A stretch of DNA of 64,000 bases from a virus: the IMG/VR virus record IMGVR_UViG_3300008110_010000, positions 8,199 through 72,198 of that record; one strand, given 5' to 3'. A program made the translations under genes and the position numbers. The notes under the pieces were generated by a model, which saw only the letters and a program-made list of their open reading frames with translations, made no database searches and was not told the origin of the DNA. Below are positions 3,229-34,001 of the stretch, piece by piece. The first letter of the stretch is position 1, and each line of letters begins with the position of its first letter.

Positions 3229-3231
3229 TAT

Positions 3232-3741: not shown

Positions 3742-4451
3742 GAATTTATATGATTTTTGAAGACGATCCTTCTATTTGTTTCCCTAATAGAATTAAAATC
3801 ATAATTAATATTCGTTGTGTATACTATTCTATCAGATTCTGAACCTAATGTAAGGGTTGGCATATGTTGTAAATCACCAGGAAAAAATAGAATATCGCTT
3901 TCTTTTGGAGTGAATGAATGTAATTTTTCGTCTTCTGTTTTAAAAATAAGATCCCCTTCTCCATCTTTAAGATCCGAAGGAATTTGTATATAAAAAACAT
4001 AGGTCCATTGCGTTTTCAAATTTGTTCTATTCGATGATTCTATCCAGTCATGGGTGTGCATCCATTCCATTTTAAAACCCGGAACTTGTATGTATATCCA
4101 ACTGGATTTTATAAATCTGTCTATTTTGCAAGACAATTTTTTCCTTAAAAAATCCAATGCCTGATTATCTACAGATCTAAATTCATCGCATCCAATATGG
4201 ACGTCCAATGAATTTTGTACCCTGTATGTCTCGTTTTGGTATAAGGATTCGTTTTGATATATTCTAGTTAAAAATTCTTTTTTCGAAAACTGATTATCGT
4301 ACCTTGTCTTGTAGATTGTGTATTTTTCTGACAGCTTATATTGTTCTGAAAAGTTTATTTTTTTCATATTTCCCATATTTAGTAAACAGTTCATTTCCAC
4401 GATATATTTTTTTCGTGGCAATCGATAAATTTCTATCAATATTCGGTTCAC
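3738..4451 (-). CDS. hypothetical protein, possible cupin/2OG-oxygenase fold
   Basis: HTHDW ... GDLIF ... HMPT pattern is suggestive only. The 5' end overlaps the next ORF, so the true start is probably internal. Confidence 0.3.
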   Translation of the reverse strand: MNRILIEIYRLPRKKYIVEMNCLLNMGNMKKINFSEQYKLSEKYTIYKTRYDNQFSKKEFLTRIYQNESLYQNETYRVQNSLDVHIGCDEFRSVDNQALDFLRKKLSCKIDRFIKSSWIYIQVPGFKMEWMHTHDWIESSNRTNLKTQWTYVFYIQIPSDLKDGEGDLIFKTEDEKLHSFTPKESDILFFPGDLQHMPTLTLGSESDRIVYTTNINYDFNSIRETNRRIVFKNHINS

Positions 4452-4770
4452 TATCCCAAGAACAGCTGTTTACCCAGTGCATGGGTGTTTTAAATATCCA
4501 ATGACAATTTTTTTCTAGATTGACATTAAACGTCCATTCGTCACCAATCTTAGAAAATTCGTACATATCATAAACATGGATCTTAACGTTATAATCAAGG
4601 GAATTTAATTCTGATTCAGTTAATTGGTAAATCCCTGAATCCCCCTTCCAGTTAACGAATATTTCTTCCCCCTCATCGATATCTCTAAGAGCAAAAATAC
4701 CTACTCCGTGTATATTGCTCGGCGACATTTTAACGTTCACATGATTTTTGATGTATTCATATGCAGTCAT
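4336..4770 (-). CDS. SET-domain protein (putative protein lysine methyltransferase), paralog A
   Basis: GVGIFALRDIDEGEEIF plus a C-terminal GNELFTKYG block resemble the SET N- and C-motifs of minimal viral SET proteins. Clear paralog of the adjacent gene. Confidence 0.5.
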   Translation of the reverse strand: MTAYEYIKNHVNVKMSPSNIHGVGIFALRDIDEGEEIFVNWKGDSGIYQLTESELNSLDYNVKIHVYDMYEFSKIGDEWTFNVNLEKNCHWIFKTPMHWVNSCSWDSEPNIDRNLSIATKKIYRGNELFTKYGKYEKNKLFRTI

Positions 4771-5243
4771 TATATGAAATTTTTTGGTGTGGTTCTGAAT
4801 TGAGATCCATAGTTTCCTAATATCTCTTCACCTTCTTTTATCTTTCTAATTGCAACAGGTGCCACATTATTATTGCTATCCACGTTACAGTTTTTCAATC
4901 CACTGTTCATAAACATTTTTGGCCAAATGTATATCCAGTGATAACCTCGCTCTAAGGGGAAAAATATTTTTCCATATTCCTTAGGTATGATTTGTTCGAC
5001 CCCATTTTTATCAACAAACCACATTTTATTGTCAAAGGTTTCGTATAAATTTTTTTGGAGCTTATCAGGGAGTGTGAATAATTCTTCCTGTGTAATTGAA
5101 TATATCCCACTCTCCCCATGCCAAAGATCAAAAACAGATTCACCTGCTTCAATATCTCTAATGGCAAAAAATCCAACGCCCTCTACAGAACTCGGCTTAA
5201 GTATTGCTGTGACCTTTTGCTGAAGATATTCTAAAGGAGTCAT
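4770..5243 (-). CDS. SET-domain protein, paralog B
   Basis: GVGFFAIRDIEAGESVF ... GEEILGNYG. Tandem duplicate of 4336..4770 with a conserved HGESGIY block. Confidence 0.5.
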   Translation of the reverse strand: MTPLEYLQQKVTAILKPSSVEGVGFFAIRDIEAGESVFDLWHGESGIYSITQEELFTLPDKLQKNLYETFDNKMWFVDKNGVEQIIPKEYGKIFFPLERGYHWIYIWPKMFMNSGLKNCNVDSNNNVAPVAIRKIKEGEEILGNYGSQFRTTPKNFI

Positions 5244-5407: not shown

Positions 5408-7282
5408 TTATATTTTTGGTATTCCTCTGTTATGTGCTAAAATTCCATTAGCAAAAAAGTTATGATTATTTTTAATATCCTGTAAATTATAAACTAGAGT
5501 GGTTTCTTCTATCATGTTTATGTTCACAATTTTTGAGCTCCCCTTTAATAACTTTAAACAGTCTCCAATCTCTATCTTACCGATTTTAGATTCTATAGTA
5601 TACAGTTTATTAGATAGATTATTATCGAATGAAGACCATCCTTTATCTTCAACATATACTGGGTGATCTATGGTACATTTTAAAAATTCACCATTCTCTA
5701 ATTCATACTCAACAATTCGGTCCACTTTTTTACTATAAACAGCATTTACTGTATTGGCCTCAATATTATTTGATAGCATGTTAAGTGTCAGTACAGAATC
5801 ACCAGCAATAATATCCTCTATATTTTTTGTAACACCTTCCGAGATGGTTATTTTCGTGCCTGCAACGAAACATGGTGCATTGTGTGTTACGAATGAATTG
5901 ACAGGAGTTGATCCTGCTATTATGTAGGTGTCAGTATCCTCAACATCAATTTCAACTAAGCTGAAATTGTTTTCATTAATTATTAATATTTCAGAATTTG
6001 TGACCTGCGCTAATGATCCATCATAATCTACTAAGTAATCTGTCGTTGTTTTTATGTTTACAGATTGTTTCCATACGATCGAGTCCATTCCCTCGTCATA
6101 AACTAAGAAAGATTTATGAACCGACGTATAAATTGAATCCTCGTTATTATTTACTGTTATATTAGATAATGTTTTATTCAACAATTCTTTACTATTTTTA
6201 TATATAACAGTAGATGTCGTTAGATTAGATTCCGGTGGTAAGGTGTTTCCTGATATTTGCCAAGTTGGATATGTGAAGTCGTCTTCCGTTAAATCTGTTC
6301 CCCCTATATAATAAGATTTTATTTCTTCCCCGACAGAAATGTTCCCTATTTCTACCTCAGTATCATCAGATTTAATTATTAAATGCGTGTTTAAAATGCC
6401 ATCAATTATACCATCATATTTAATAAAATTTGTTGCAAACTCGTAATAATGTTTATTGTCTATCTTATTAATGTATTGGGCTTCATTATAAATTGATTCG
6501 ACAGGTAATTCAAATGCCGCACTTTCCTGAAATTGTCCTACGTGAATTAGGGACAGATCACCTCCGTAAATAATCGAGAAAGTTCTCACTGTGGAAACTT
6601 TATTATCTGAAACGGTTTGTGAACTTATGTGATATTTTTGTATTACGTTATTTTCTGTTGCCTTTTCGCTGATGAATACTCCCCATCGGCTTTGGTCTGT
6701 ATCTTCAGTGGATTCGCTGCCTATTTTATAAAAATCTATAAGGGAATGTTCCGCATCGCTTATGTTTTTTATTAAGCAATCTGGCAAATTTCCCGAATTA
6801 AAATCCCTAGAAATCGTATCGTATTGTCCGAGTGAGGATGAATGATAAAACTCCGCAACGCTATCCTGCTCATTATAATCACAGAATAGCCTAAGTGTGT
6901 TTAATGTTCCCTTAGCATACTCGCTATCAAAAATGGCTGATTCGTCATACGCCATTCTCAGAACGAATAAGTCTGAAGCATCCTCAACAGGAGTCGGGTA
7001 TATTCTGTTTGATTGCTCTTTTATCTCCTTAAATTCTGTGATAAATGGAGCGTTCGATGTCAATGATTCGGAAAGTTTATCGACTATATACTGATGTATG
7101 TTCGGCTTATGTACTACCGTTACTCTTGTGATGTTATTGCTCTCTAAAACCGAGATAAGGTCGTTAAAATCCAGATAGACTAAATTATTAGTCGAAATAG
7201 TTGTGTCTGTATTTACTTCCAATAGTCTTAAATTGCCAACGCTATCCTCAATAAAATCCGCGGAAAAAAAGGTTCCTTTCAT
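5408..7282 (-). CDS. large protein with C-terminal Hint (intein/BIL-like) autoprocessing domain
   Basis: C-terminal ~150 aa carry Hint blocks: APCFVAGTKI (block A Cys), TIDHPVYV (T-x-x-H), VYNLQDIKNNHNFFANGILAHN (blocks F/G ending HN). Only six residues (RGIPKI) follow HN and there is no +1 Cys/Ser/Thr, so it looks BIL/Hog-like rather than a canonical intein. Confidence 0.6.
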   Translation of the reverse strand: MKGTFFSADFIEDSVGNLRLLEVNTDTTISTNNLVYLDFNDLISVLESNNITRVTVVHKPNIHQYIVDKLSESLTSNAPFITEFKEIKEQSNRIYPTPVEDASDLFVLRMAYDESAIFDSEYAKGTLNTLRLFCDYNEQDSVAEFYHSSSLGQYDTISRDFNSGNLPDCLIKNISDAEHSLIDFYKIGSESTEDTDQSRWGVFISEKATENNVIQKYHISSQTVSDNKVSTVRTFSIIYGGDLSLIHVGQFQESAAFELPVESIYNEAQYINKIDNKHYYEFATNFIKYDGIIDGILNTHLIIKSDDTEVEIGNISVGEEIKSYYIGGTDLTEDDFTYPTWQISGNTLPPESNLTTSTVIYKNSKELLNKTLSNITVNNNEDSIYTSVHKSFLVYDEGMDSIVWKQSVNIKTTTDYLVDYDGSLAQVTNSEILIINENNFSLVEIDVEDTDTYIIAGSTPVNSFVTHNAPCFVAGTKITISEGVTKNIEDIIAGDSVLTLNMLSNNIEANTVNAVYSKKVDRIVEYELENGEFLKCTIDHPVYVEDKGWSSFDNNLSNKLYTIESKIGKIEIGDCLKLLKGSSKIVNINMIEETTLVYNLQDIKNNHNFFANGILAHNRGIPKI

Positions 7283-7500: not shown

Positions 7501-7872
7501 TTAGCTATGTGTCTCTTTACCTGAGGCATCAATTGTTCCCTCCCTTATTTTGGTACCGCTTATTAGCGCAATATTTTCTGGGGGCTCGTGGTAAATAACC
7601 TCATAACCTACCCCTCTCCCATAATTGATTGATTCAATGTCGGGAATTATCGAAAGAAGTATTCTGTCAGAATTTTTAACAAAAAACGATTCTTTGGAAA
7701 GATCTTCCAAAATTTGTTGTGCTTTTTTTGGATTATTGGCATCTTGATCTACGTCCCTGATAGCGACCCAAATGTTTTTTCCCTTCTCTAACTGTTGATT
7801 AATAAGCCATTCGTGTCCTTTGTGCCAGTTCTGCCATCTACCTATATAGAGAGCATATTTTTTACCTTCCAT
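7501..7872 (-). CDS. small nucleotidyltransferase (cytidylyltransferase-like, HxGH family)
   Basis: YIGRWQNWHKGHEWL fits the G-x-(F/W)-x-x-x-H-x-G-H signature of cytidylyl/adenylyltransferases. Confidence 0.5.
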   Translation of the reverse strand: MEGKKYALYIGRWQNWHKGHEWLINQQLEKGKNIWVAIRDVDQDANNPKKAQQILEDLSKESFFVKNSDRILLSIIPDIESINYGRGVGYEVIYHEPPENIALISGTKIREGTIDASGKETHS

Positions 7873-7878
7873 TAATAT

Positions 7879-8307
7879 TTATACGCGCAGAAGGAGACAA
7901 AGTTCCACGAAAGATCTTTCTATGCTGGATCCGTTTCGAAAAATTAAAAAGTTTTCCTCAGGACCTTCAAAATTTTTAACGTGTAACTTTTCCTTCCCTC
8001 CGTAATCGTTCCTGGAAAATAAAACCTCTACAACATCGTTATTTTGCTTTAGATCTTCCCTTATAGCACGATAAGGACAAACCATACTTATCACCACGTT
8101 ATGTCCTTTAACCGACATAAAACGAGCTATAGTGAAGGACCTTTCTATGTTCTTGATCCTGCCAGAATAAGAATAGTCAGTATTGGGGAATATTTCCCTC
8201 AGATCATCGCCATCTATCCATACAGTTCCCATTCCTAATCTTCTAACTAAGAGCTCTGCCATTGTAGTTTTACCCGATCCTGGCTGTCCTATTAATAGGT
8301 ATATCAT
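7879..8307 (-). CDS. P-loop kinase, adenylylsulfate (APS) kinase-like
   Basis: Walker A in IGQPGSGKTT plus VISMVCPYRAIRED, which resembles the APS-kinase ISPYR-x-x-R motif. Confidence 0.5.
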   Translation of the reverse strand: MIYLLIGQPGSGKTTMAELLVRRLGMGTVWIDGDDLREIFPNTDYSYSGRIKNIERSFTIARFMSVKGHNVVISMVCPYRAIREDLKQNNDVVEVLFSRNDYGGKEKLHVKNFEGPEENFLIFRNGSSIERSFVELCLLLRV

Positions 8308-8469: not shown

Positions 8470-8817
8470 TCATTTATAATTATTTTTAAATTCCTCTAAT
8501 CCCATGGCTTTATCGTCGATTAGGTAGTCATAATGCAATTTTCCCATTATCAGTCCATGGTGATTTATTCCCCATTCTTTTAAACTATCCAGGGTAAGAA
8601 CATAAAGACTGTTATAAACCTTAACCAGATCTCCATTGAACTGTCCCATTCCCCTAGCAGTGTAAATGTAAATGGTGTGACCCTCATCATAAAGTTTATT
8701 CGATTTATCAATCATGTGCTTTATGGGTACACAATGTTTATATTTATCTGGGCCAAGGTGTTCCAGATTTTTATCCCGGGTACATAATGTATCGTCTAAA
8801 TCAAATGCGTAAATCAT
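8470..8817 (-). CDS. HAD-superfamily hydrolase-like protein
   Basis: N-terminal MIYAFDLDDTLC carries the D-x-D-x-T HAD motif I. Confidence 0.5.
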   Translation of the reverse strand: MIYAFDLDDTLCTRDKNLEHLGPDKYKHCVPIKHMIDKSNKLYDEGHTIYIYTARGMGQFNGDLVKVYNSLYVLTLDSLKEWGINHHGLIMGKLHYDYLIDDKAMGLEEFKNNYK

Positions 8818-8918: not shown

Positions 8919-9878
8919 TTATTGGACATAACTGAGCAGTCTTATTAATCTTTGCTTTATGTTATTTTTAATCGTTTCATCCATAGAATAATCCATTTTA
9001 ATAATATTATTTAATTTTTGATAGTTATAGTGACCGCAAACCATTATTAATTTTCTTTTATTCGAAAAATCAAAATTCAGATCTACCCACTTTTCCCATT
9101 TTTTAGAATCGTAGCATACCTCGTAAAACATGTCTATCTGATCCTTTTCCATAAAATCTATTATCGTTTCCGTTTCAATTTGTGCTATTTCTGGCCCAAT
9201 ATTCAAACTATTCAATCCTCTTTTAAATCTTACAACAATATCCGGCCAATCAAGATAATCGCCATTATGTTCCTTTGATTTCTTTCCATATGATTTGCAT
9301 ATTCCGATCATAGATTCTAAATCTTCTATATTGAATTTTCCTATATTTTTTTTATTAGCTATATCTAAACCCACCCCCGATTGAATACACACATATTCTA
9401 TTTTTTCAAATTCATCCCCGGTTAGACCAATTTGTAATTCTCTCAAAAAAAAATCCAGATCTTCAGTGGTAATTTTTTTGATTGCCTCTTCTGTCCCAAC
9501 TTCAAATAAGATGTTTGAATTTAATTTGTGAATGAATTTAATGTTTTCGATTGTTTCTTTTGTCCCAGATTCGATATCTTGGTATTTTTTCCATGGATCT
9601 ATGTGTACGATATCAAGATACTTGGAGTCATTAAAATAAGATTCATATTCGTCAGTGTCTCCTTGCCCTATTCCCCCATGATCCCTTTCTATTATTATTT
9701 CGGATCTTTCTTTGACATAATTCTTGAATGCTTCGGTTGTCCAATTATTAACATATCCTCCATTAAATTCTATCTGTCTTCTGCTTGGCAATAATCCTAT
9801 CTTTTTAGAGCCCAATTCTATGACTGCATCCACTATGTTTTTAGACATTGGACATATGAAATAATTTATTTCAGACAT
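8919..9878 (-). CDS. hypothetical protein
   Basis: 319-aa ORF with no motif recognised. Confidence 0.35.
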   Translation of the reverse strand: MSEINYFICPMSKNIVDAVIELGSKKIGLLPSRRQIEFNGGYVNNWTTEAFKNYVKERSEIIIERDHGGIGQGDTDEYESYFNDSKYLDIVHIDPWKKYQDIESGTKETIENIKFIHKLNSNILFEVGTEEAIKKITTEDLDFFLRELQIGLTGDEFEKIEYVCIQSGVGLDIANKKNIGKFNIEDLESMIGICKSYGKKSKEHNGDYLDWPDIVVRFKRGLNSLNIGPEIAQIETETIIDFMEKDQIDMFYEVCYDSKKWEKWVDLNFDFSNKRKLIMVCGHYNYQKLNNIIKMDYSMDETIKNNIKQRLIRLLSYVQ

Positions 9879-10527
9879 ATTCTATTCCCGTGTATATTTT
9901 AAACTGTTCGATAGCTTGATATCTTGACATTAATTTTCCGCTTTCGAATTCTGTTCTTGCTTCGATAATCCGACCGTTTGTGCAAACGTCCACTGGAGTT
10001 GCATTAAAAATCCACCCATCCAAACTTTCAATTTTGCTCCAGTTTTTCCTTTCTATTATTTCATACTCTATTCCCCGAATTCTACACACATATTGGACTG
10101 CTAGACTAAAACCTCCATTTCCCAGTATGGCTATTTTTTTAACTTCCCTTGGTAAATATTTATCTATGCCAATCCAGTCTGTGTTGTAACCGAGTAATTT
10201 GTTATCAACTATTTTAACAGTATTACACGAACCAATATCTGCGACGGAAGAATCACACCAATCTAAATAATCTAATATTTGCACTTTATACGGCATGCTA
10301 ATTGCAAATCCACCAAATTTTAAGTTCTTAGCGGATTCTACCGATAATTCTATATCGTCGCTATAAAATGATTTATAAATTGCATCAACTGAATACTTCT
10401 GAAAAGCACTATTGAAAAAATGACATCCATTATTTCCTGGGTTCTTTGAAAAAGATCCGAATATCTTAGTATCCTTGTTTATCAACACCTGCGACATTTT
10501 ATAGTGATAATAATATATTTTCAGCAA
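9871..10527 (-). CDS. shikimate/quinate dehydrogenase-like protein
   Basis: ISMPYK (substrate-binding x-x-PxK), LLGYNTDWIG (G-x-NTD-x-x-G) and glycine-rich AILGNGG in AroE order. Confidence 0.45.
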   Translation of the reverse strand: MLKIYYYHYKMSQVLINKDTKIFGSFSKNPGNNGCHFFNSAFQKYSVDAIYKSFYSDDIELSVESAKNLKFGGFAISMPYKVQILDYLDWCDSSVADIGSCNTVKIVDNKLLGYNTDWIGIDKYLPREVKKIAILGNGGFSLAVQYVCRIRGIEYEIIERKNWSKIESLDGWIFNATPVDVCTNGRIIEARTEFESGKLMSRYQAIEQFKIYTGIEYV

Positions 10528-11284
10528 TTATATACTGTCCAGTTTCGTTTGGGTGATGATCGTTAACTAATTCTTCCCAAAATTTTGTATCATAATTTTT
10601 ATATCTGTCAGAATATCTTAAGCATTCATTTGATGTAAACCTCTGAGCGTCGATATTAAATTCATCATCATCTAGCGGAAAGTAAATAATTCTGCTTGGA
10701 TGAGTAATTGTTTTAATGACATTTTCTTTCCTTTTTTGCGTGGAATTTACATCTTTAGGATGTATAGGGTTTAAAAACCAATATTTAACTGTCGCACCTA
10801 TTTTATTTTCCAAATAATCAAAAACAGGAAGTACGTTTTTAAATCCAAGAATTAATAATTCAATTCTAAAATCTAAAACGAAATCTACGTATTTTTTCAT
10901 TTTTTCTTCATCATAAAATTTTTCACTCCTGAAATAATCAATCTGATGCCAATCAAAATCTATCAATACGTCATTTATTTCAAATATGTCTTTACTAGAC
11001 CACGATTCTCTTACGTGGTTTTCGTTAACAAAAGGTACAGGGAACCTATCTGGGTATGTAAACTCGAAAACCACTAAATCCCCCTTCTTTATTTTTTCCA
11101 TCTGCCTGAACAGCTTTACCGTAGATTCAAAATTGGATTGACCACTAAACCCGTTATTTACAAAATTGAATCCAATTTTTTCGGCTAATATTTCTGGCCA
11201 AAATTTCAAGCCGTATTCTTTTTCGTGATGTGGAGAATGAGTCCAACTACATCCGTAAGCCCATAGTGTGTTTTTTGTAATCAT
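10499..11284 (-). CDS. hypothetical protein (possible distant SGNH-like)
   Basis: N-terminal LWAYGCSWTHS is reminiscent of the GDS(W) motif, but weak. Confidence 0.3.
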   Translation of the reverse strand: MITKNTLWAYGCSWTHSPHHEKEYGLKFWPEILAEKIGFNFVNNGFSGQSNFESTVKLFRQMEKIKKGDLVVFEFTYPDRFPVPFVNENHVRESWSSKDIFEINDVLIDFDWHQIDYFRSEKFYDEEKMKKYVDFVLDFRIELLILGFKNVLPVFDYLENKIGATVKYWFLNPIHPKDVNSTQKRKENVIKTITHPSRIIYFPLDDDEFNIDAQRFTSNECLRYSDRYKNYDTKFWEELVNDHHPNETGQYIIAENILLSL

Positions 11285-13178
11285 CTAGAATTTCTATAGA
11301 TTTGAACCATAACATTTTACCAAATTTTCCATCGTGTAATGGAGACATATTTAGAAATATCAGGCCTGTTATAAATTTAATCTTATCGAGATCGAATCCG
11401 TTTTTCCTGATCCATCCCTCATATTCAGATCTAAACTTAATTAGATTCTTTGAGATATGATATTCATATTTAATAGAATAAGATCCTTCAAAGTATGTGA
11501 TATTACTGTCATCTTTCATTAAATTGTATGGGATTATTAATCCGCCATAAAACTTAGAAAGATCGTAATAAATGTCTCCAGATTCTACATTTTCTCCAAA
11601 GCAGTCTCTCCAGTCTATGTAATAGTATTCGCCATCTTCCGATAATATCATATTATCAAAGTGGAGATCACCATGAAAATTAGAATAGAAAGGATTCTCG
11701 TAAAGACAGTCAAATATTTTTTCATCAGATAATATAAGATCCAAAGATGGTCTTTTAATTTCGTTTATTTCATGATCAGAAACAAAATAACTTTCTCCAT
11801 ATTTAGCAAGAAATGATTCTAGTCTTTTATGGGTTTTGTCGACATAAAACTTTTTAAGATCTTCTATGTTTGCAGGGATTGTCTCCTTGGTGAGGAATTC
11901 CAGCTTTGTCAAAAACCTACTAAAATCCCCCAGTTCCCCGCGATCGTATAAAGTTTTACCTTCTATCCAATCGTAATAAAGAAAATTCCCAGCAACATTG
12001 AAATTTGGGGGAACCAAGCCTCTTAAAATTTCTCCTCTAATTTTCCTTCTTTCTAGCAGATCTCTATCTTGTGTAAACTTTAAAAATTTACCCCCGTCCT
12101 TATAGGTTATTTCTCCTATGTCTTTTTTCAAAGATAGCGGTTTATCATTAAAGTACTGTCTAGCTTTATCTAGATCGTCTAGATTTCCGGTATCTAGCCA
12201 TTTTAACTTTTTTGCCTTTAGACTTGTATAGACTTGAGGTGATTCAAATGCAGAAACTAATTCACCGCTTTTAATATTTTCTTTAAGCTCTTTCCAGAAA
12301 GTGGAGTAATCTGATATTCCTCCGAAACCAACAAATGCTAGATCGTATCCGTCAGTACTTTTGTTAACGAAAGATGTTATATTTTCTTTATCGTCCATCT
12401 TCACCGTGGAGTATTTTTCTGGATATGATGTTGAATGAACCCCTAACCAGTTACCGTTTATTCCAGGGATCGGAGAATCTATGATACAATCTCCCATTAT
12501 AAAATAAAAAGGTCTTTGAAGATGCTCGGAGCACAACAGAGCGCTTGTACCTGGCCCAGTTTGCGAAGGATCATAATTCTCGACATTTACGAATGTAAAT
12601 TTGTGATCTGGATAAACTAGATTACAATACTCTTTGACGGAATCTCCCTTGTATCCAATAGCTATGATAAAGTCATATTCCTTAGGGAATTTTTCTATTA
12701 TGTAGGATATGATAGCCCGATTGTTTACCGGCAATAAAGTTTTATTTATGTTGTCTGTTAATTTTTTTAGACGGCTACCTAAGCCTGCACATAATATTAA
12801 AACCGCGGGAGTTTTATGCTCGCTTTCGATCTTTCCATCAGGTCTATTTGTATCATCCTCCACTCGTATTACATCGTCGACCTCCGGGGTAGAAACTTCT
12901 TGCATTATCAGGTCGGTCAAAGCAATTACCCTGTGTTTTTTAGGAGGAATTACGTTATAGTATTGACCTGGGCCGTACACCTCCTTAACAATTTCACCTT
13001 GATCATTCTCCAGCCAAATTTCTGCTTGTCCCGATATGATATAGTTAGTTTCTTTTTTAAAGTTGTGATACTGTAAAGATGTTTTATATCCCTCGTTTAT
13101 ATAGATTCTTTTATAACAATAAGAATCATTAAGTTCTATCCATTCTTCTTTACCCCACGGTTTATAAATTGTTTTCAT
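11247..13178 (-). CDS. trifunctional fusion: cupin (PMI-type) domain + sugar-phosphate nucleotidyltransferase + APH/choline-kinase-like kinase
   Basis: N-terminal KPWGKEEWI ... QYHNFKKETNYIISGQAEIW (cupin_2). Middle LILCAGLGSRLKKLT ... LLPV (G-x-G-x-R NTP-transferase motif). C-terminal HGDLHFDNMIL ... IDWRDC (Brenner H-G-D-x-x-x-x-N and D-x-x kinase motifs of APH/ChoK family). Confidence 0.6.
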   Translation of the reverse strand: MKTIYKPWGKEEWIELNDSYCYKRIYINEGYKTSLQYHNFKKETNYIISGQAEIWLENDQGEIVKEVYGPGQYYNVIPPKKHRVIALTDLIMQEVSTPEVDDVIRVEDDTNRPDGKIESEHKTPAVLILCAGLGSRLKKLTDNINKTLLPVNNRAIISYIIEKFPKEYDFIIAIGYKGDSVKEYCNLVYPDHKFTFVNVENYDPSQTGPGTSALLCSEHLQRPFYFIMGDCIIDSPIPGINGNWLGVHSTSYPEKYSTVKMDDKENITSFVNKSTDGYDLAFVGFGGISDYSTFWKELKENIKSGELVSAFESPQVYTSLKAKKLKWLDTGNLDDLDKARQYFNDKPLSLKKDIGEITYKDGGKFLKFTQDRDLLERRKIRGEILRGLVPPNFNVAGNFLYYDWIEGKTLYDRGELGDFSRFLTKLEFLTKETIPANIEDLKKFYVDKTHKRLESFLAKYGESYFVSDHEINEIKRPSLDLILSDEKIFDCLYENPFYSNFHGDLHFDNMILSEDGEYYYIDWRDCFGENVESGDIYYDLSKFYGGLIIPYNLMKDDSNITYFEGSYSIKYEYHISKNLIKFRSEYEGWIRKNGFDLDKIKFITGLIFLNMSPLHDGKFGKMLWFKSIEILDDYKKHTMGLRM

Positions 13179-13893
13179 GATATTGATCTTGATTATTTCC
13201 CCAATCCATCGTTTTTTGGAATATCGTATTTATAGATATCTCTTCTTTATTTAACTGTCTAGAGTTAGCCCTTACAGTAACGACAGATGTTCTTGGAATT
13301 TTTTTAATTTTTATTTCACTTAGTAAAATGTGTTTGGCTAAGTGATGATGCATGGAGCCGTTACATTCGTTTCCGTCTAATCTTTCCGGTATATTATCAA
13401 TTAATTTTTCGATTAGATCATATTTACCAAAGAAAAAAATATCCTGTATGAATAATTCTTCCCCGTTATTTCTAATCTCTTCTAACCCGTATACAGATCC
13501 CTCTCTTAAATCCTCATCCGAATTTATATTCTCAAAATCGAAATTAAAATCAAAATAATTATCAGGTCTTGTTAGCATGATATAATCATATTTTATACCG
13601 CTTTTTTTGATCATTTTAAGCCCGGATTTCCAGTGGAATATCATCTTTTCTGGATTGGTTAATTCAGAAAACACATCATCTAATATTAAAACATTTGCGT
13701 CTTTAATATGATCTAATATTCTTTTTTCTGTGACTTCCTCGTCGATTATGATGTCTAGTTTTTTATTTTTTTGCTTGGATCTAGACCATGTTGAAAAATA
13801 AACCTCGCAATCAAACTTGCTTAAAAAATTCCAAGAAGTAACAGCAATATCAAATTCCCTATACATCCCATAAACCAAAATTGCAATTTTCAT
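13162..13893 (-). CDS. hypothetical protein, paralogous to the repeated module of 14546..16327
   Basis: Starts MKIAILVYGMYREF, like the two MKIAIC-SGQ-R modules in the next-but-one gene. Confidence 0.35.
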   Translation of the reverse strand: MKIAILVYGMYREFDIAVTSWNFLSKFDCEVYFSTWSRSKQKNKKLDIIIDEEVTEKRILDHIKDANVLILDDVFSELTNPEKMIFHWKSGLKMIKKSGIKYDYIMLTRPDNYFDFNFDFENINSDEDLREGSVYGLEEIRNNGEELFIQDIFFFGKYDLIEKLIDNIPERLDGNECNGSMHHHLAKHILLSEIKIKKIPRTSVVTVRANSRQLNKEEISINTIFQKTMDWGNNQDQYHENNL

Positions 13894-14549
13894 ATGATTT
13901 TTACCTTTGATTTTATTTCATTTTCTATGTATTGGCAAAAATCCCTATGACCCTTGAATGACCAGTGATGGTTTACTATTTCTCCCTTTGTTGCATTGAC
14001 TATTAATTCAAATTTTTCCCAGAGACTTTCTACATCCCAGATATAGCAGAGATTTACTCCTCTATCTTTTAGTAGTCTTTCTCTCAAAAAATTCAGTCTA
14101 AAATCGTGTCTGATAGAATAAGCTTTCTGTGTTGCAAATTCTATTGAAAACATTTTTATGGTCTCTATCTGCTCGTTGGTAAATAATCCAACGGTTGCAT
14201 CTTCAAACCATTTTTGTACGTCTTTTTCCCCTCCCCTATAAACTATAGATTTGACTTCCGGTGAATCATTTTCTTTCGGAAAGTCAAATCTGTGTGACCA
14301 GGTTTTACCTATTATTACTATATCGTCCTTAGAAATATCCTCCCAGTTTTTTATTATAGTATCAATAATAGTATCGTTAGACACCCCAGGTAAACCTTTA
14401 TTTTGTAGAGCATAGTTTATTTTTCTGGATAATAATTTATTCCAAGAAAGGTCATCATCTTTTAACCTATATCTTTGATAATATAGATCATGATCTAATG
14501 TGCCGTCTCCGTATGTAAAAGAACATCCAAATGTCCAGATTTTATTCAT
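13890..14549 (-). CDS. SGNH/GDSL-like hydrolase
   Basis: MNKIWTFGCSFTYGDG block I motif. Confidence 0.4.
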   Translation of the reverse strand: MNKIWTFGCSFTYGDGTLDHDLYYQRYRLKDDDLSWNKLLSRKINYALQNKGLPGVSNDTIIDTIIKNWEDISKDDIVIIGKTWSHRFDFPKENDSPEVKSIVYRGGEKDVQKWFEDATVGLFTNEQIETIKMFSIEFATQKAYSIRHDFRLNFLRERLLKDRGVNLCYIWDVESLWEKFELIVNATKGEIVNHHWSFKGHRDFCQYIENEIKSKVKII

Positions 14550-16327
14550 ATTAATATTTTATCTATGACCTCTGTTTCACCTCCGGGGAACACCGCTATA
14601 TCTTCGAACAGAACCTCATTGTCCCCAAGTCCCCCTAATTTTAATTGTTTTTTGAGAGTTATAAAATTCCTAAATTTGCATATCTGAAAATTAAGAGGGG
14701 TAGTTTGATTCTTTACTCCAATCTCTTTTAAATAGTGATAAAAAACTAACTCAGGTATCAGGTGGTTTCTGCTTTCTTCAAACGTTCTAATGTCTATACT
14801 TGGTAGGTGCCTATAAAAATCGCAAATTTTATCGAACGTTAAAGAATCTGAAAACCAAAACACATCACCAATTGCAAAATGAGGGTAAACATCAATTTTT
14901 CTATTATGTATAGAAAATATAGTATTTGGTTTAACAGTTGATAAAATTTCGATTAAATCAAAAACCTGTCCCCATGGAACATATTGATCGTACCGTAATC
15001 TGATACAAACATCATATTCGAAATTATTTTCTATCTCGTATTGTCTTTTCAATTCGCACGATCTCATCACTGCATAAAACTGGTTTGCACACCAAGTAAT
15101 GGGCGGACCTTCATTTTCTGGATATCTCTCCTCTGCAATGTCAATAACATCCTGGTTTACTCTTTGATTTTTTTCAAAATCCTCAATTAGATATTTTTTC
15201 GGTTTGTATATTTTAATTATTTCATTTAATTTATCATCGTCGTACGGAGTTACTCTATTATTGGCGGTTACATCCAATATTGGTCTGGATTCGCTTTCAA
15301 AATTCCAAGCATGGCAGAAAAAGTCGACAGTGCTATTAGGATCACTTTCAACTTTATTTTTTAGCTTTATTATGTTGTGGTAGCATTTTTCATAAGTTCT
15401 GAATTGACCACTTAAGCAGATAGCAATTTTCATAGTTCTTAATTTTTTTAACACATTGGGTGAAAACCCGGTCTTTTCAAAAATTTCTTTTTTGAATTTC
15501 AAAAGTAGATTGTATCCGATGTGTTTGACGTTTGATAATTTTTGAAACTCGTGATTATATAATATTCTATTGATTTCAACACACTCCCTAAAATTATCCA
15601 CTGGATGATAACCCAGGGAGAATTCTCTAAAGATTGTCCACTTATACTCCATTTCATTTAGAAACTCTATAGATTCTATATTATTTTCCTTGAGATAATC
15701 ATCAAAAAACACGTGATAAAGATCTTTGCTTTTATCTGTTGTGATAATATAGTTATGAAACAATGAAGCCTTATCCATAACTGAGGAATTTGACATAAAT
15801 ACCACATCATGCAGCATTCTGCTTGAAGGATTCTCAAATTCTGTTATTGTGTCGACTAAAAAAATACCATTTTTGATAAAAGAAATGTTGTCGTGAATTA
15901 TATTTTTTAATTTAATCGACGGATCATATATGCAATCCATTCTCATTTTTATTACAACGTCGTATTGAAAATTGTTTTCCTCTTCGTATTTCTTTTTTAA
16001 ATTAACACTTTCATACCAGCTGTACCACATCGGGGAATTTGATGTCCCCTTTTTTAGAGACAAATCGTAATAGTCCTCGTAAATATCAACCTTAGTTTTT
16101 TTTGGTTTGTATATGTTATTAATTTTTATGTAATCATTTAGTTCTACCTTCTTGATATGGGTATATTCATGTTCGGGTCTTTCGTCCCCAAAAAATCTTT
16201 TACCGTCATTAATATCCCACGTGTGTATAAAATAGTCGGCCTCACATCCCTCAATAAAATTGAGTATGTTGATGGAAGAATCAACTGCCCTTCTTATTTG
16301 ACCACTAAAGCAAATCGCAATTTTCAT
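14546..16327 (-). CDS. protein with internally duplicated ~300-aa module of unknown function (possible sugar-modifying enzyme)
   Basis: Two tandem modules begin MKIAICFSGQIRR and MKIAICLSGQFRT. The conserved ...WDINDGKR.../...AWNFESESR... pattern indicates an intragenic duplication. Confidence 0.4.
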   Translation of the reverse strand: MKIAICFSGQIRRAVDSSINILNFIEGCEADYFIHTWDINDGKRFFGDERPEHEYTHIKKVELNDYIKINNIYKPKKTKVDIYEDYYDLSLKKGTSNSPMWYSWYESVNLKKKYEEENNFQYDVVIKMRMDCIYDPSIKLKNIIHDNISFIKNGIFLVDTITEFENPSSRMLHDVVFMSNSSVMDKASLFHNYIITTDKSKDLYHVFFDDYLKENNIESIEFLNEMEYKWTIFREFSLGYHPVDNFRECVEINRILYNHEFQKLSNVKHIGYNLLLKFKKEIFEKTGFSPNVLKKLRTMKIAICLSGQFRTYEKCYHNIIKLKNKVESDPNSTVDFFCHAWNFESESRPILDVTANNRVTPYDDDKLNEIIKIYKPKKYLIEDFEKNQRVNQDVIDIAEERYPENEGPPITWCANQFYAVMRSCELKRQYEIENNFEYDVCIRLRYDQYVPWGQVFDLIEILSTVKPNTIFSIHNRKIDVYPHFAIGDVFWFSDSLTFDKICDFYRHLPSIDIRTFEESRNHLIPELVFYHYLKEIGVKNQTTPLNFQICKFRNFITLKKQLKLGGLGDNEVLFEDIAVFPGGETEVIDKILI

Positions 16328-17474
16328 ACTCTAATAAATAATCTCCAATGTCTAGATTTCTTATAGAATCCATCATTTTTAAAAAATTGGAAGATTTTTT
16401 TTCTAAATTCCCATCTTTTTTATTTTCTATCTCGTACATAAATCTATTTCTGTCGCCATCTCCCAATTTGTAGATTTGCTCCATTGCAAGATCCTTCAGC
16501 TTTGGGTGTAAACAAGATATGTGTAAGTAATTGGGGCTATAGACAAAATTATATTCAATTTGTTCACCGGAAAAAAACTCTCTAAAATTCCACACATTAC
16601 AAACATTCAAAACACTTATTGTCTGGGTTATAGTAATTTGTAATTTTTCTTTTTTCAGTTTTAAAAAATTATCATACACAACTTCCCATTTTGAAGGATA
16701 TCTTATATAATCATTCCTATTTCCAACGTCGTCTATAGAAAGCTGTAGTTTTACCTCCCGAAATTCTCTTAACAGCTCTAAAAACCTGTCTGGTAAATTT
16801 GTACAGTTTATGTTATATACCAGCTTTATATTTTTTGATTTGTCTAGAGAAATCAACTTCTCCAAAAAGTAAAAATGCTCCTTTATCAACGTTGGTTCTC
16901 CCCCGTTGATGTAAATTTCCTCCAATTCGCTAGAATGCTTTAATAATTCATCATACCATTCTTTGTTTTTAAACCAATCGCTTTTATAATCTTCATAGTT
17001 GTAATGATCGTCTCCGAACGTGGACGGAAATCTTTTAACATCTTCTATCCACTTGCTACTTGACATCGGGTTGCATGTTAAACACTTTATGTTACAAACA
17101 TTACCGAGTCTTAATTCGATAAACTTAAGATGTATATTTGGGAGTTTTTCGCTTATACTTATTTTATTGAGATATTTAGCATTTTCTTCATCTCTTTTAC
17201 TCTTGAATCCGTTTTCTTCTATCCTGTAACAACCTATACATTCGATAGGTTTCTCATTATTCATCATCTTTCTTCTAATTTCTGTGAAAGAATCAGAATT
17301 CATAATGTCTTCTATGCTATCCTTACCTAGGGTTAATACTCTATTTTTAGTTTTGGAGAAACAAACCCCATTTTCAAAATTAGCAATACAACAAGGTGAC
17401 ACCAGCCCGTTAGGATGAGTTGCTAAATGCGTAAACGGTAACGAACATATAGTTTTTAAATTTGTGTCCACCAT
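16305..17474 (-). CDS. radical SAM enzyme (paralog 1)
   Basis: CNIKCLTC (C-x3-C-x2-C) radical SAM cluster motif. N-terminal Cys-rich CSLPFTHLATHP ... PCC region is shared with paralogs. Confidence 0.6.
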   Translation of the reverse strand: MVDTNLKTICSLPFTHLATHPNGLVSPCCIANFENGVCFSKTKNRVLTLGKDSIEDIMNSDSFTEIRRKMMNNEKPIECIGCYRIEENGFKSKRDEENAKYLNKISISEKLPNIHLKFIELRLGNVCNIKCLTCNPMSSSKWIEDVKRFPSTFGDDHYNYEDYKSDWFKNKEWYDELLKHSSELEEIYINGGEPTLIKEHFYFLEKLISLDKSKNIKLVYNINCTNLPDRFLELLREFREVKLQLSIDDVGNRNDYIRYPSKWEVVYDNFLKLKKEKLQITITQTISVLNVCNVWNFREFFSGEQIEYNFVYSPNYLHISCLHPKLKDLAMEQIYKLGDGDRNRFMYEIENKKDGNLEKKSSNFLKMMDSIRNLDIGDYLLEYENCDLL

Positions 17475-18793
17475 TCTAATAATTTTTTGTTTTGTCCTAG
17501 AATATTCTCAAATGTTAATGATCCATTTAAACCGTCCTTTCTGAACTCTGCTATTCTTATCATGTTTTCTTTCCCTCTCTTTCTGCCCTCTTTATAATCT
17601 GGATACGATTCTTCGAAAGTTTTTTTGGTTTTTAAATCTTCTAAAGCCTCCACATAAATTTGGGTTTTCGATGTAACCCTTGGCTTAATGTAATCTAGGG
17701 TATCGTCTATAATTTCTTCGAGGATGGACCTAGGTATTGACAATGGAGACATAAGAACAGAGGAATCGAAAGAAAAAGTTGTTTTTATATAGGTTACTAC
17801 ATTTAATTCCACTGCACGATCGAATAATTCTTTTATAGACAGTAGGCCTGGAAGAGTTATTGTAAGATCAAAAACCATTCCATGATCGCCGTATAAATCG
17901 TTTAGAAAAAGACCTCCCTTAAAATTATCTAGCCACTTTTCCCACACTATTCCAGTTCTGATAAATTCAACAATTTTTCCAGTTCCATCTATACTTGCAC
18001 ACAGATTTACCCTTTTAAAATGAGGCAGAAAATCATATAGATTCATTCCTTTATATGATACCCTGCTTAAATTTGTGTTGTATCTTATTATAACATTCTT
18101 GGATTGATTATTATCAACCAAATACTTCATGATATCCCAATGAATGTCCCACATCAATGGTTCACCACCTACCCAATATATTTCTTCTATTCTATTCTCT
18201 TTCACTGCTTCCCAAAGTTCGTTTTCAGTAACTTCTTTCTGGAATTTTTTAAATTTTTCTTGATTTTCTTTTTTATAAAATGGCTCGGTTTCTAAATTAA
18301 TGTTGCCCATTATTTTTCTTTCCGCCTCCCACTGTGAACTTAACAAGTCGCCACACATTCTACATTTAAAATTACACAGATTACTTATCCGATAGTCATA
18401 TGATATTGGTTTCATGTGAGTGTAACCATCATCTTCCGTTTTTTCGAATATCTCGTCTATTTTGTGGGGAAAAAGTGTATTGGTGAAATAACCTTTGTAT
18501 GTGTAAAGATTTAGAATTTGATCGTTACAAACCTGACATTGTGGAATTGACTCTCCGGACATTATTCTTTTTCTAATGTTTTTCATATAATCACTATTCC
18601 AATGATCCTCCAGCGAAACTGGTTTAAAATGTGAGTTATCGTCAGGATTTTCAGAATCTATGTACTGTTTAATATAGTTTGCCTTTTCCCTACTTGCACA
18701 ACATAATCTTCTTTCCCCCTGTGGGGAAAGATATGTGTGTGTCCACGGTGCTGTACAAAAAAATTCATTTCCATCCGAAGGTTTTATTCTCAT
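17456..18793 (-). CDS. radical SAM enzyme (paralog 2)
   Basis: CNFKCRMC motif. N-terminal FCTAPWTHTYLSPQGERRLCC is similar to paralog 1. Confidence 0.6.
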   Translation of the reverse strand: MRIKPSDGNEFFCTAPWTHTYLSPQGERRLCCASREKANYIKQYIDSENPDDNSHFKPVSLEDHWNSDYMKNIRKRIMSGESIPQCQVCNDQILNLYTYKGYFTNTLFPHKIDEIFEKTEDDGYTHMKPISYDYRISNLCNFKCRMCGDLLSSQWEAERKIMGNINLETEPFYKKENQEKFKKFQKEVTENELWEAVKENRIEEIYWVGGEPLMWDIHWDIMKYLVDNNQSKNVIIRYNTNLSRVSYKGMNLYDFLPHFKRVNLCASIDGTGKIVEFIRTGIVWEKWLDNFKGGLFLNDLYGDHGMVFDLTITLPGLLSIKELFDRAVELNVVTYIKTTFSFDSSVLMSPLSIPRSILEEIIDDTLDYIKPRVTSKTQIYVEALEDLKTKKTFEESYPDYKEGRKRGKENMIRIAEFRKDGLNGSLTFENILGQNKKLLEWWTQI

Positions 18794-19710
18794 ATTAATC
18801 TGCTAGATTTTATTATATTCTGCGTATAGAGATCACCCCTTCCGTTTGAAATCCATTCATACAACAATTCTGCCCATAATTTGTGCGATTTGGGTGTTGG
18901 ATGTACACCATATAATCTTTCCTCCAACGGTATCTGTTTTATATAATTTAAAAATGAATTTGATGGCTTGTCTTTCATCAGAAAATTGGATTCTGGTACA
19001 TGGTCCCATTTTAATTTACTCATACGGTATAGATCCTCCCCCCAAATACCTTCAACATATTTGAAAGAATCTATCCATTTCATAATATTTAAGTCTATAA
19101 ATTTTCTTTCCATTTTATAGATATGATGTTCCTCAGGTAAAGCATTGAACAAATAACATGGAATTCCGTACTTATCGCAAAACGTACGTATTTCAAAATT
19201 GTAGTTTATGAAATCGTACGCTCCTTCATAGTCATTTTGAACAACCGATAAATACCACTTAAAGAATTCCCTCATTCCATATTCCTCTTTATTGAAATCT
19301 CCGTTACTGTTTAGAGTTTTTCGGTATATTTTATTATGAGTATTGAAAAAAAATTCCTTTCTAACTATAGAGGTCCATCCAATGACTACAATGATGTCAT
19401 CTGGAGTTTTATTAGGGACAATGTAGTTTTCAAGTAGCCAGTTTAAAAGTGTTTCAAAAATCCATTTGTTACCTACTGCAGGCTTGGCTAAATTTATAAC
19501 CTCTTTTGCCCCTATTAATTCTTTTAAATATGTTGGCCAAATTCTTTCAATCCTATATTGATCGTTTTTTGCGTCAGTATCTTCTTCTATTATCCCGTTA
19601 AATTTATTTATTTGGTGAGGCTTTGATGGAGCTTCCAAAAACTGTGGGTCCACAATTTCACTACCATATGTAAAGCTATCTCCGCACACAACTAATTTCA
19701 TTTCACTCAT
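18790..19710 (-). CDS. SGNH/GDSL-like hydrolase
   Basis: LVVCGDSFTYGSE block I motif. Confidence 0.45.
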   Translation of the reverse strand: MSEMKLVVCGDSFTYGSEIVDPQFLEAPSKPHQINKFNGIIEEDTDAKNDQYRIERIWPTYLKELIGAKEVINLAKPAVGNKWIFETLLNWLLENYIVPNKTPDDIIVVIGWTSIVRKEFFFNTHNKIYRKTLNSNGDFNKEEYGMREFFKWYLSVVQNDYEGAYDFINYNFEIRTFCDKYGIPCYLFNALPEEHHIYKMERKFIDLNIMKWIDSFKYVEGIWGEDLYRMSKLKWDHVPESNFLMKDKPSNSFLNYIKQIPLEERLYGVHPTPKSHKLWAELLYEWISNGRGDLYTQNIIKSSRLI

Positions 19711-21262: not shown

Positions 21263-21263
21263 G

Positions 21264-33985: not shown

Positions 33986-34001
33986 CAAAAATTAATTTAA
34001 T

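Follow-up and report, generated by a model that had tools for sequence, protein, structure and literature searches.

The closest described system to the gene analyzed here is the enzyme pair AfhE and AfhF of E. coli phage HY126, whose counterparts in phage RB69 are gp52:53 and gp51, respectively, according to PMC13326640, which cites He et al. for the biochemistry. AfhE is presented there as a D-arabinose-5-phosphate kinase/UDP-arabinose pyrophosphorylase that catalyzes the step from arabinose 5-phosphate (Ara5P) to arabinose 1,5-bisphosphate. AfhF, a magnesium-dependent phosphatase of the HAD superfamily, then converts the 1,5-bisphosphate to arabinose 1-phosphate, from which AfhE forms uridine diphosphate (UDP)-arabinose; the Ara5P itself is the product of an SIS-type arabinose-5-phosphate isomerase (PMC13326640). 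The gene in question is a single open reading frame (ORF) on a 64,000-nucleotide stretch, called the window below, of the virus record IMGVR_UViG_3300008110_010000. It encodes a cupin, a nucleotidyltransferase (NTase) and a kinase in one chain. Judging from its sequence, the protein is probably a trifunctional enzyme of a phage de novo nucleotide-sugar pathway, in which an AfhE-like core has acquired an N-terminal cupin of the phosphomannose isomerase (PMI) type. The probability of this reading was put at roughly 60%.

The ORF encodes 643 residues, begins with ATG and has zero internal stops in the ORF list of the window. Its parts are as follows.

11247..13178, minus strand: the three-domain ORF, cupin-NTase-kinase (ORF list; Pfam, NCBIfam and PHROG scans; full-length homologues)
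12864..13178, minus strand: PMI-type cupin (type II phosphomannose-isomerase C-terminal domain), residues 1-105 (PF01050, TIGR01479, phrog_7851)
12813..12863, minus strand: flexible linker, residues 106-122, VEDDTNRPDGKIESEHK (predicted local confidence, pLDDT, about 50; equals the C-terminal tail of stand-alone cupins)
12144..12812, minus strand: NTase domain, residues 123-345, with G132xGxR136 and K146 (PF00483, Foldseek, RB69 gp53)
11250..12143, minus strand: kinase domain of the APH/ChoK fold, residues 346-643, with K367, H502GDLHFDN509 and I521DWRD (Pfam APH, AF2 with Foldseek, RB69 gp52)

The original prediction, made from the letters of the window, had placed three domains in one polypeptide, and Pfam together with AF2/Foldseek bore this out (PF01050, PF00483 and an APH-fold kinase); the two motifs that it quoted, G-x-G-x-R and HGDLHFDN, are found at G132-R136 and H502-N509. 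The AF2 model of the full-length protein had a pLDDT of 89.3 and a pTM of 0.77, the linker (residues 106-120) being the only low-confidence or disordered stretch. Over residues 2-107 the cupin scored 34.1 bits with the Pfam family MannoseP_isomer, PF01050 (cut-off 23.6), in an alignment that spans model positions 10-115 of 116, and it matched phrog_7851 in the PHROG scan (E 1.3e-18). It is also the sole part of the protein that aligned to the NCBIfam model TIGR01479, GMP_PMI (positions 357-466; 33.4 bits against a cut-off of 373). In the family alignment its invariant residues are K6PWG9, SLQxH38, E43 and H82-R83. The NTase domain matched NTP_transferase, PF00483, from residue 127 with 29.4 bits against a cut-off of 21.2. 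Its motif reads G132-L-G-S-R136, and G132, G134, R136 and K146 are invariant in the family. Among NCBIfam models, the matches to Arch_glmU and HddC (E 1.4e-11) were partial and sub-threshold, and the HddC equivalog NF049965 gave a partial match of 44.4 bits where 300 are required. Structural comparison with Foldseek found LicC (TM-score 0.78) and HddC (0.72), and also RmlA and GalU. When the full-length model was compared with the PDB, generic NTases dominated the matches, without discrimination of sugar or nucleotide. The domain is about equally like LicC, RmlA, GalU and HddC, a resemblance that would leave the identities of both the sugar and the nucleotide unconstrained.

The kinase domain has a bilobal kinase fold, the Brenner motif HxDxxxxN (H502-G-D-L-H-F-D-N509) and, in the following I521-D-W-R-D, a downstream metal-binding aspartate, D522. 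The residues H502, G503, D504, N509, D522, W523 and R524 are invariant in the family alignment. When the domain was modeled separately (AF2, pLDDT 92.5) and compared with the PDB using Foldseek, only kinases of the APH/ChoK fold were returned, with a probability of 1.0 and TM-scores of about 0.45-0.55; they were ethanolamine and choline kinases, APH(3')-Ia, FN3K and MTR kinase. The corresponding sequence profile matched nothing significantly among PDB sequences, so that fold comparison alone gave matches, indicating that the fold is right and that the kinase is far from every solved subfamily. Neither the Pfam scan nor the PDB fold search matched the region to the GHMP kinases, and no NahK, AmgK or LicA model was reached at the curated NCBIfam thresholds. 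The kinase is in this respect unlike that of Fkp, one of the salvage enzymes with which the original prediction had compared the fusion.

The most specific similarity of the NTase-kinase part is to AfhE. Residues 126-543 of the fusion matched phrog_4098 (E 5.7e-17), which is the family that RB69 gp53 and gp52 define (E 1e-118 and 1e-169). When the kinase family was aligned with RB69 gp52 by hhalign, the probability was 92 and the E value 5.8e-7, and the two have in common the extended motif HGD..F.N..GE..ID.R..FGE....G..YD..K. A tblastn search with gp52 found window positions 11553-11975 (E 2.5e-6). In the BFVD database of viral protein models, RB69ORF052c was the best single-domain match of the kinase (TM-score 0.62, root-mean-square deviation 3.9 A), as compared with 0.55 or less for PDB kinases. 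The NTase domain likewise aligned with RB69 gp53 (hhalign E 1.2e-5; BFVD TM-score 0.72). On this comparison of sequences and models, the NTase-kinase part is taken to be a distant homologue of AfhE and RB69 gp53:52. The identity to AfhE is low, which makes it almost certain that the sugar is not arabinose.

The fusion is conserved. The identical three-domain architecture recurs in more than 120 protein clusters, whose members have about 635 residues and 57-88% identity. Family alignment retrieved 76 loci on IMG/VR viral contigs, 70 of which hold the fusion as one intact ORF; the module counts given below use these 70. Invariant residues are present in all three domains. The fusion is thus genuine, and the frameshift that the original prediction had allowed for was not found. 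In one relative (L078 5278-7167, IMGVR_UViG_3300035698_024406), the orthologous three-domain gene has 12 in-frame stop codons. All of them are TGA and 7 of the 12 lie opposite tryptophans of the window protein, some of them invariant, which indicates that this genome reads TGA as tryptophan. The possibility that this copy is a pseudogene was considered and dropped in favor of recoding (code 4) rather than decay.

In the synteny comparison the fusion gene was never alone. It stands with three partner genes, usually in the order fusion, shikimate dehydrogenase (SDH)-like, GatZ-like and HAD, although the order is rearranged in several lineages. In the window, the genes downstream of the fusion are as follows.

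9871..10527, minus strand: SdhL-like protein of the shikimate dehydrogenase family, 218 residues, with a shortened Rossmann domain (PF08501, 45 bits)
8919..9878, minus strand: GatZ/KbaZ-type protein (class II aldolase superfamily), 319 residues, a putative ketose-6-phosphate C4 epimerase (profile search and hhalign)
8470..8817, minus strand: small HAD phosphatase of the AfhF/RB69 gp51 type, 115 residues, with a DLDDT (DxDxT) motif (TIGR01689, phrog_1238, tblastn)
10499..11284, minus strand: weakly SGNH/GDSL-like ORF of 261 residues between the fusion and the SDH-like gene (weak Lipase_GDSL_3 match)

An SDH-like gene, encoding 207-228 residues, adjoins the fusion in all 70 loci and overlaps the end of the fusion gene in almost all of them. 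A GatZ-like gene (about 320 residues, no Pfam match) is present in 66 of the 70, as is a small HAD gene of one of two types (about 115-130 residues). Of the four loci that lack the GatZ-like and HAD genes, two are truncated where the contig ends; the other two are the most divergent of all, with 38-39% identity. A one-protein route from free sugar or aminoalcohol to the activated sugar, as originally proposed, does not agree with a fusion so consistently tied to three further enzymes. The SGNH-like insert is lineage-specific; it is absent from that place in L002-L008, and most related loci do not have it.

The best PDB match of the SdhL-like protein in a profile search was 1npy (HI0607, the orphan SdhL; E 5.6e-43). 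It keeps the catalytic lysine and aspartate, the SxS motif, the GxGG loop and the NATP motif. The 319-residue protein matched KbaY (8q57, E 3e-5) and the GatZ-like 3txv in a profile search of the PDB, and it aligned with E. coli GatZ over 264 columns (hhalign E 2.3e-5). Its invariant D66, H67, E130 and H204 correspond to the catalytic D87-H88 and the zinc ligands E171 and H257 of GatZ. GatZ and KbaZ are fructose-6-phosphate/tagatose-6-phosphate C4 epimerases with a two-histidine, one-glutamate site (PMC11907403). An assignment of this partner as an aldolase was also tried. The hhalign comparison with the true aldolase GatY was not significant, and the GatZ-type reading was preferred.

The small HAD protein matched TIGR01689, a capsule biosynthesis phosphatase model (E 4.5e-7). 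It was aligned with RB69 gp51 by tblastn (34.5% identity, E 1.2e-15) and belongs to phrog_1238 (E 1e-26), which is the PHROG of gp51 too. Members of this family carry the name 'phosphoheptose isomerase' in RefSeq and PHROGs, for example RB69p051 (L013 7709-8095) and SSM2_207 and SSM2_210 of cyanophage S-SM2 (L001 4035-4346 and 5676-6005). The name is a propagated misannotation; the members of phrog_1238 are small AfhF-type HAD phosphatases. The second type of HAD, as in L002, gave no significant hhalign match to gp51 and was for that reason treated as non-orthologous. That two unrelated HAD types occupy one slot, as in non-orthologous displacement, argues that the phosphatase step is required.

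An exhaustive search with the kinase domain returned 1138 clusters at 50% identity, most of them NTase-kinase proteins of about 520 residues, the cupin-fused form being a minority. The kinase family is widespread in marine phages and present in bacterial polysaccharide loci too. In more remote relatives (29-39% identity), a gene of its own encodes the cupin and directly precedes the gene for a two-domain NTase-kinase. Such stand-alone cupins occur in L009, L011 and L012, with a 4-bp overlap between the two genes in L009 and L012, and all three end with a DDxNRxxGxIxxEH tail that is the linker of the fusion. In L011, on a 250-kb contig, a homing endonuclease of the GIY-YIG/NUMOD3 type (6510-7028) lies between the stand-alone cupin and NTase-kinase genes. 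Other relatives are combined differently. P0189 is an NTase-kinase fused to a GatZ-like domain (897 residues; E 9e-35 to the 319-residue protein of the window), P0251 is an NTase-kinase fused to a GT2 glycosyltransferase, and P0141 has the cupin and the kinase without the NTase. The bacterial relative L009 has a Wzx flippase as its neighbor, a sign of a glycan pathway; its other neighbors are a full-length SDH homologue, a KdsC-like HAD, a protein of the inositol-monophosphatase family and a second NTase. The claim of the original prediction that a kinase and a pyrophosphorylase together activate a sugar for glycosyltransferases is supported by these GT2 fusions and neighbors of the relatives.

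Homologues were also seen in named viruses (BFVD matches A0A5S9BZ34 and A0A1V0SE67). Tenacibaculum phage PTm1, a cultured jumbo phage, encodes a two-domain NTase-kinase of 521 residues that is annotated as a guanylyltransferase, and the giant eukaryotic virus Indivirus ILV1 encodes a relative of 635 residues, so that enzymes of this type are found in more than one virus realm. Cultured cyanomyoviruses such as S-SM2 have an analogous, non-orthologous set as separate genes. It consists of a PMI-type cupin of phrog_7851 (37% identical to the fusion cupin), a phrog_3980 NTase, an AraD-like epimerase/aldolase and two of the misnamed phrog_1238 HADs. S-SM2 gp204 has only the NTase N-terminus in common with the fusion and belongs to phrog_3980, not phrog_4098, so that the cyanophage cluster is an analogue rather than an orthologue. 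Cyanophage S-CAM1 likewise has an analogous cluster.

We infer from these data a pathway in which each domain is catalytically competent and the steps follow one another as in the Afh system. A ketose phosphate of the host, probably fructose 6-phosphate, would be converted to tagatose 6-phosphate by the GatZ-type C4 epimerase; sedoheptulose 7-phosphate or a pentulose phosphate could serve as alternative starting sugars. The cupin would isomerize the ketose phosphate to an aldose omega-phosphate, in place of the SIS isomerase that serves the Afh and heptose pathways. The APH-fold kinase would then phosphorylate the anomeric C1 to give a 1,omega-bisphosphate, the small HAD phosphatase would remove the distal phosphate, and the NTase would join the sugar 1-phosphate to a nucleotide from a nucleoside triphosphate (NTP), forming the nucleoside diphosphate (NDP)-sugar. 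In this scheme the kinase-phosphatase pair would replace a phosphomutase. The SdhL-like dehydrogenase would contribute a redox step without a fixed place in the pathway, and the product would pass to glycosyltransferases of the surrounding 29-kb island. The combination of the HAD, the PMI-type cupin and a partner resembling ketose-6-phosphate epimerases points to de novo synthesis from a phosphorylated central metabolite by way of a 1,omega-bisphosphate, and away from salvage, be it of a free sugar or of an aminoalcohol. More tentatively, and with odds well short of even, the product may be a nucleotide-activated sugar undescribed in viruses, for example a talo- or galacto-hexose or a reduced or oxidized derivative, made from fructose 6-phosphate via tagatose 6-phosphate without a phosphomutase and destined for virion proteins (the collagen-like fiber described below) or the host surface.

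Several observations weigh against the trifunctional de novo reading. The similarity to AfhE is remote, at about 28% identity over 148 kinase residues, and the NTase alignment by hhalign had a probability of only 81%. In the cupin, the second histidine of the HxH motif is lost and replaced by F40, so that isomerase activity is not assured; the domain could alternatively have a binding or regulatory role. The APH (PF01636) score of the kinase was 19.9 bits (residues 399-543, E 6.6e-4), below the Pfam cut-off of 23.2. However, 9 of 20 scanned relatives score at or above that cut-off and the AF2 model matches the fold, so that the APH/choline-kinase assignment of the original prediction survived. 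In the two most divergent loci, L075 and L088, neither a GatZ-like nor a HAD gene was detected within 8 kb. The model does not account for the SdhL-like protein. Furthermore, the top PDB sequence match of the NTase is LicC, a phosphocholine enzyme (E 3.3e-6), in an alignment confined to the generic NTase N-terminus, and ethanolamine and choline kinases are included among the top structural matches of the kinase. Taken together, these last two matches make a non-sugar phospho-alcohol substrate formally possible.

Among the alternatives to the trifunctional de novo enzyme, salvage is unlikely, though the least so of them. The kinase would act on C1 of a free sugar, in the manner of NahK/GalK or Fkp, the NTase would form the NDP-sugar, and the cupin would bind that sugar or isomerize it. 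Other steps would fall to the HAD, GatZ-like and SDH-like proteins, the phosphatase possibly first freeing the sugar from a sugar phosphate. A kinase joined to an NTase is typical of salvage enzymes such as Fkp and AmgK/MurU, and certain cupins, D-lyxose isomerase for example, do isomerize free sugars. Moreover, a table in PMC13326640 gives an alternative order for RB69, in which the phosphatase releases free arabinose and the kinase forms arabinose 1-phosphate. The cupin of the fusion, however, is specifically of the PF01050/PMI type, a family of sugar-phosphate isomerases, the substrates of GatZ-type enzymes are ketose 6-phosphates, and a HAD found in 66 of 70 loci would be needless for pure salvage. 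AfhE itself is reported to turn Ara5P into the 1,5-bisphosphate. Of the Fkp- or LicA/LicC-like salvage originally suggested, the logic of kinase plus NTase can therefore be retained, whereas salvage of a free sugar or aminoalcohol is disfavored by the HAD, the PMI-type cupin, the GatZ-type partner and the homology to AfhE.

The possibility was also considered that the same enzymology makes a donor with which a modified base of the DNA is glycosylated (hypermodification), as in phages with arabinosyl-5-hydroxycytosine, rather than protein or polysaccharide. The only characterized homologues, AfhE/AfhF and RB69 gp51-53, serve DNA arabinosylation, and the element is a large phage of which 64 kb are in view. 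Nevertheless, tblastn found no match in the window to RB69 gp55, gp48 or the deoxynucleoside monophosphate (dNMP) kinase, and homologues of the 5hodCMP synthase, the dNMP kinase and the SIS arabinose-5-phosphate isomerase are absent from it, so that neither the SIS isomerase nor the DNA arabinosylation genes of the Afh system were recovered there. The island around the fusion instead has GT7-lectin fusions, GT2, radical-SAM/SPASM enzymes, 2-oxoglutarate (2OG)-Fe(II) oxygenases and SET domains beside a collagen-like fiber, and the bacterial relative adjoins a Wzx flippase. The lack of DNA-modification homologues in the window, together with an island for protein and glycan modification near that fiber, favors glycosylation of virion proteins or of the cell surface and makes a DNA donor quite improbable.

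A third alternative is that choline, ethanolamine, glycerol or another polyol is activated in the manner of LicC and LicA, giving a cytidine diphosphate (CDP)-alcohol for phosphodiester decoration of glycans; in a variant, the SDH-like reductase would supply the polyol, following the logic of CDP-2-glycerol or CDP-ribitol. Besides the LicC and ethanolamine/choline kinase matches given above, the relative P0263 matches Pfam Choline_kinase with 27 bits, 'choline kinase' is among the automated JGI names of homologues, and a reductase is present in every module locus. For the window protein itself, however, no Pfam Choline_kinase match was obtained, the choline-/ethanolamine-kinase and LicA/LicC models of Pfam and NCBIfam all fell below cut-off, and the neighbors are GT2 and GT7 proteins rather than a LicD context. 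Specific homology links the protein to the sugar-phosphate kinase AfhE. The transferases that relatives have as fusion partners or neighbors are GT2 enzymes, which use NDP-sugars, and not those of the LicD or TagF type; the PMI-type cupin and the GatZ-type partner are sugar-phosphate enzymes, and the logic of LicA/LicC gives a phosphatase no role. The analogy with pneumococcal Gtp1/2/3 and CDP-2-glycerol was given low weight. Phospho-alcohol activation is accordingly given very little credence. The weakest alternative, an artefact of frameshift, misassembly or read-through or else a decaying non-functional gene, is already refuted by the intact single-ORF copies, the clusters of equal architecture and the invariant residues across all three domains, and its sole support, the apparent 12-stop interruption in L078, is explained by the TGA recoding, so that its probability is negligible.

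The element is an uncultured tailed phage of large size, probably marine. The window has about 33% G+C. A tmRNA gene (33604-33988, tag peptide DVELSTMTFEDAMSFVGADYAIAA) and 21 tRNA genes (35650-57899) lie within about 24 kb, and this translation-rescue and tRNA set of its own marks the element as a large phage. A megablast search of the region against GenBank phages gave no match and no close relative. The viral contigs that carry relatives reach 299 kb, and one further contig with a relative is labeled as a Flavobacteriaceae metagenome-assembled genome.

The fusion gene is part of a 29-kb block in which minus-strand genes are densely packed and often overlap; the block also encodes a GT2-like protein, a methyltransferase and SGNH-like proteins. 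Paralogues of a 'MKIAI..SG' family flank the fusion, one of them single (13162-13893) and another a tandem-duplicated protein of 593 residues with a weak DUF7796 match (14546-16327); they are multicopy in L003. Two weakly SGNH-like paralogues (13890-14549 and the insert at 10499-11284) begin with W/FxxGCSxT. Both sets of flanking paralogues may be sugar-tailoring enzymes. Directly downstream of the module, positions 7501-8307 encode a truncated P-loop protein resembling adenylyl-sulfate kinase (142 residues) and a 123-residue ORF with GRWQNWHKGH, a HIGH-type nucleotidyltransferase signature. These two may provide a further activation step, for example a sulfation or another nucleotidyl transfer.

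Four or five radical-SAM/SPASM enzymes are clustered at 16305-23296. In at least two of them (16305-17474 and 17456-18793) the SPASM domain is N-terminal to the radical-SAM core, residues 10-82 as compared with 123-288, the reverse of the usual order. Two paralogues at 24604-27449 combine an N-terminal GT7 domain, similar to beta-1,4-galactosyltransferase, with a Laminin_G_3/concanavalin-like lectin domain; the GT7 family is typical of eukaryotes. Positions 2138-5243 and 5408-7282 encode two prolyl-hydroxylase-type 2OG-Fe(II) oxygenases (PF13640), a pair of SET-domain proteins and a 624-residue protein with a Hint/intein-like end. Together, the oxygenases, SET proteins and Hint-ended protein suggest functions in post-translational modification of proteins. 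A tail fiber of 1543 residues with collagen-like repeats is encoded at 42949-47580, where the G+C content is 0.42-0.47, as opposed to about 0.33 elsewhere; the window has further phage genes besides. With 2OG-Fe(II) oxygenases and glycosyltransferases nearby, this fiber is a candidate target of glycosylation or hydroxylation.

If the trifunctional de novo reading is correct, the kinase, phosphatase and pyrophosphorylase strategy recently shown for UDP-arabinose in phages would be a single instance of a far wider family (about 1,100 kinase clusters at 50% identity) that is combined modularly with different isomerases, SIS or cupin, and with tailoring enzymes. It would offer a route to rare NDP-sugars that needs no mutase and is of potential use in glycoengineering, a testable context for orphan SdhL enzymes and GatZ-type epimerases, and a handle on the glycosylation targets of large marine phages. 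If, in addition, the product proved to be a novel viral NDP-sugar, the module would give the orphan SdhL class its first physiological role and GatZ-type epimerases a biosynthetic one.

Neither the cupin-fused form nor the widespread set of four genes that includes the GatZ-type and SdhL-like partners was found described in the literature searched; a search for the combination of cupin, NTase, SDH and phage returned nothing, and no link of GatZ/KbaZ or SdhL to nucleotide-sugar synthesis was found in the literature retrieved. As compared with GatZ/KbaZ, the window partner keeps the D-H, E and H zinc/catalytic positions but is shorter (319 as opposed to 420 residues); the SdhL-like partner keeps the catalytic lysine and aspartate of HI0607 but has 218 residues as opposed to 271.

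Fkp, LicC-LicA, AmgK/MurU and NahK resemble the fusion in that a kinase and a nucleotidyltransferase activate a small molecule. They differ in belonging to salvage routes that need no phosphatase and have no cupin, and no model of these enzymes was matched at threshold; the likeness to Fkp and LicA/LicC is one of function alone. The NTase precedes the kinase in Fkp and LicCA; AmgK, NahK and LicA are of the APH fold, whereas the Fkp kinase is a GHMP kinase. The statement that the fusion has a different domain order and an extra cupin is therefore right as to the extra N-terminal cupin and wrong as to the order, which from NTase to kinase is the same as in Fkp, LicCA and AfhE.

The type II PMI-GMP enzymes (AlgA, ManC/CpsB, XanB) also carry an NTase and a PF01050 cupin in a single polypeptide, and the fusion cupin aligns with their PMI domain from end to end, with KPWG, SLQxH, the conserved glutamate, H-R and the DD(V/I)xRxxD tail all represented. 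The order is reversed in the window protein, whose cupin is N-terminal, as opposed to the N-terminal GMP NTase and C-terminal cupin of the full-length TIGR01479 equivalog. It has an added kinase and F40 for the second HxH histidine, and its kinase-phosphatase pair would replace phosphomannomutase.

The heptose pathway (GmhA, HddA/HldE, GmhB and HddC) starts with a ketose phosphate, passes through a 1,7-bisphosphate, uses a HAD phosphatase and ends in an NDP-sugar. The four-step logic of these GDP- and ADP-heptose routes is alike (see also PMC8204981), HldE is a precedent for a kinase-NTase fusion, and the NTase is partly similar to HddC. The window kinase, however, is of the APH/ChoK fold rather than a GHMP kinase or a ribokinase, the isomerase is a cupin rather than an SIS protein, the HAD is minimal (about 115 residues), and no curated heptose model was matched at cut-off.

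The AfhE/AfhF system (HY126; RB69 gp53:52, gp51 and gp55; DLP3 gp81-83) agrees with the locus in the most respects. In both, an N-terminal NTase and a C-terminal APH-like kinase are in one protein, the partner is a small HAD phosphatase, and the logic is that of isomerase, 1-kinase, distal phosphatase and pyrophosphorylase. The window differs in that its isomerase is a fused PMI-type cupin instead of a separate SIS arabinose-5-phosphate isomerase, that the module adds GatZ-type epimerase-like and SdhL-like dehydrogenase partners, and that no DNA-modification genes are near the fusion. The kinase/phosphatase/pyrophosphorylase type of enzyme is thus already known from AfhE/AfhF, and the fusion protein is a modular extension of it.

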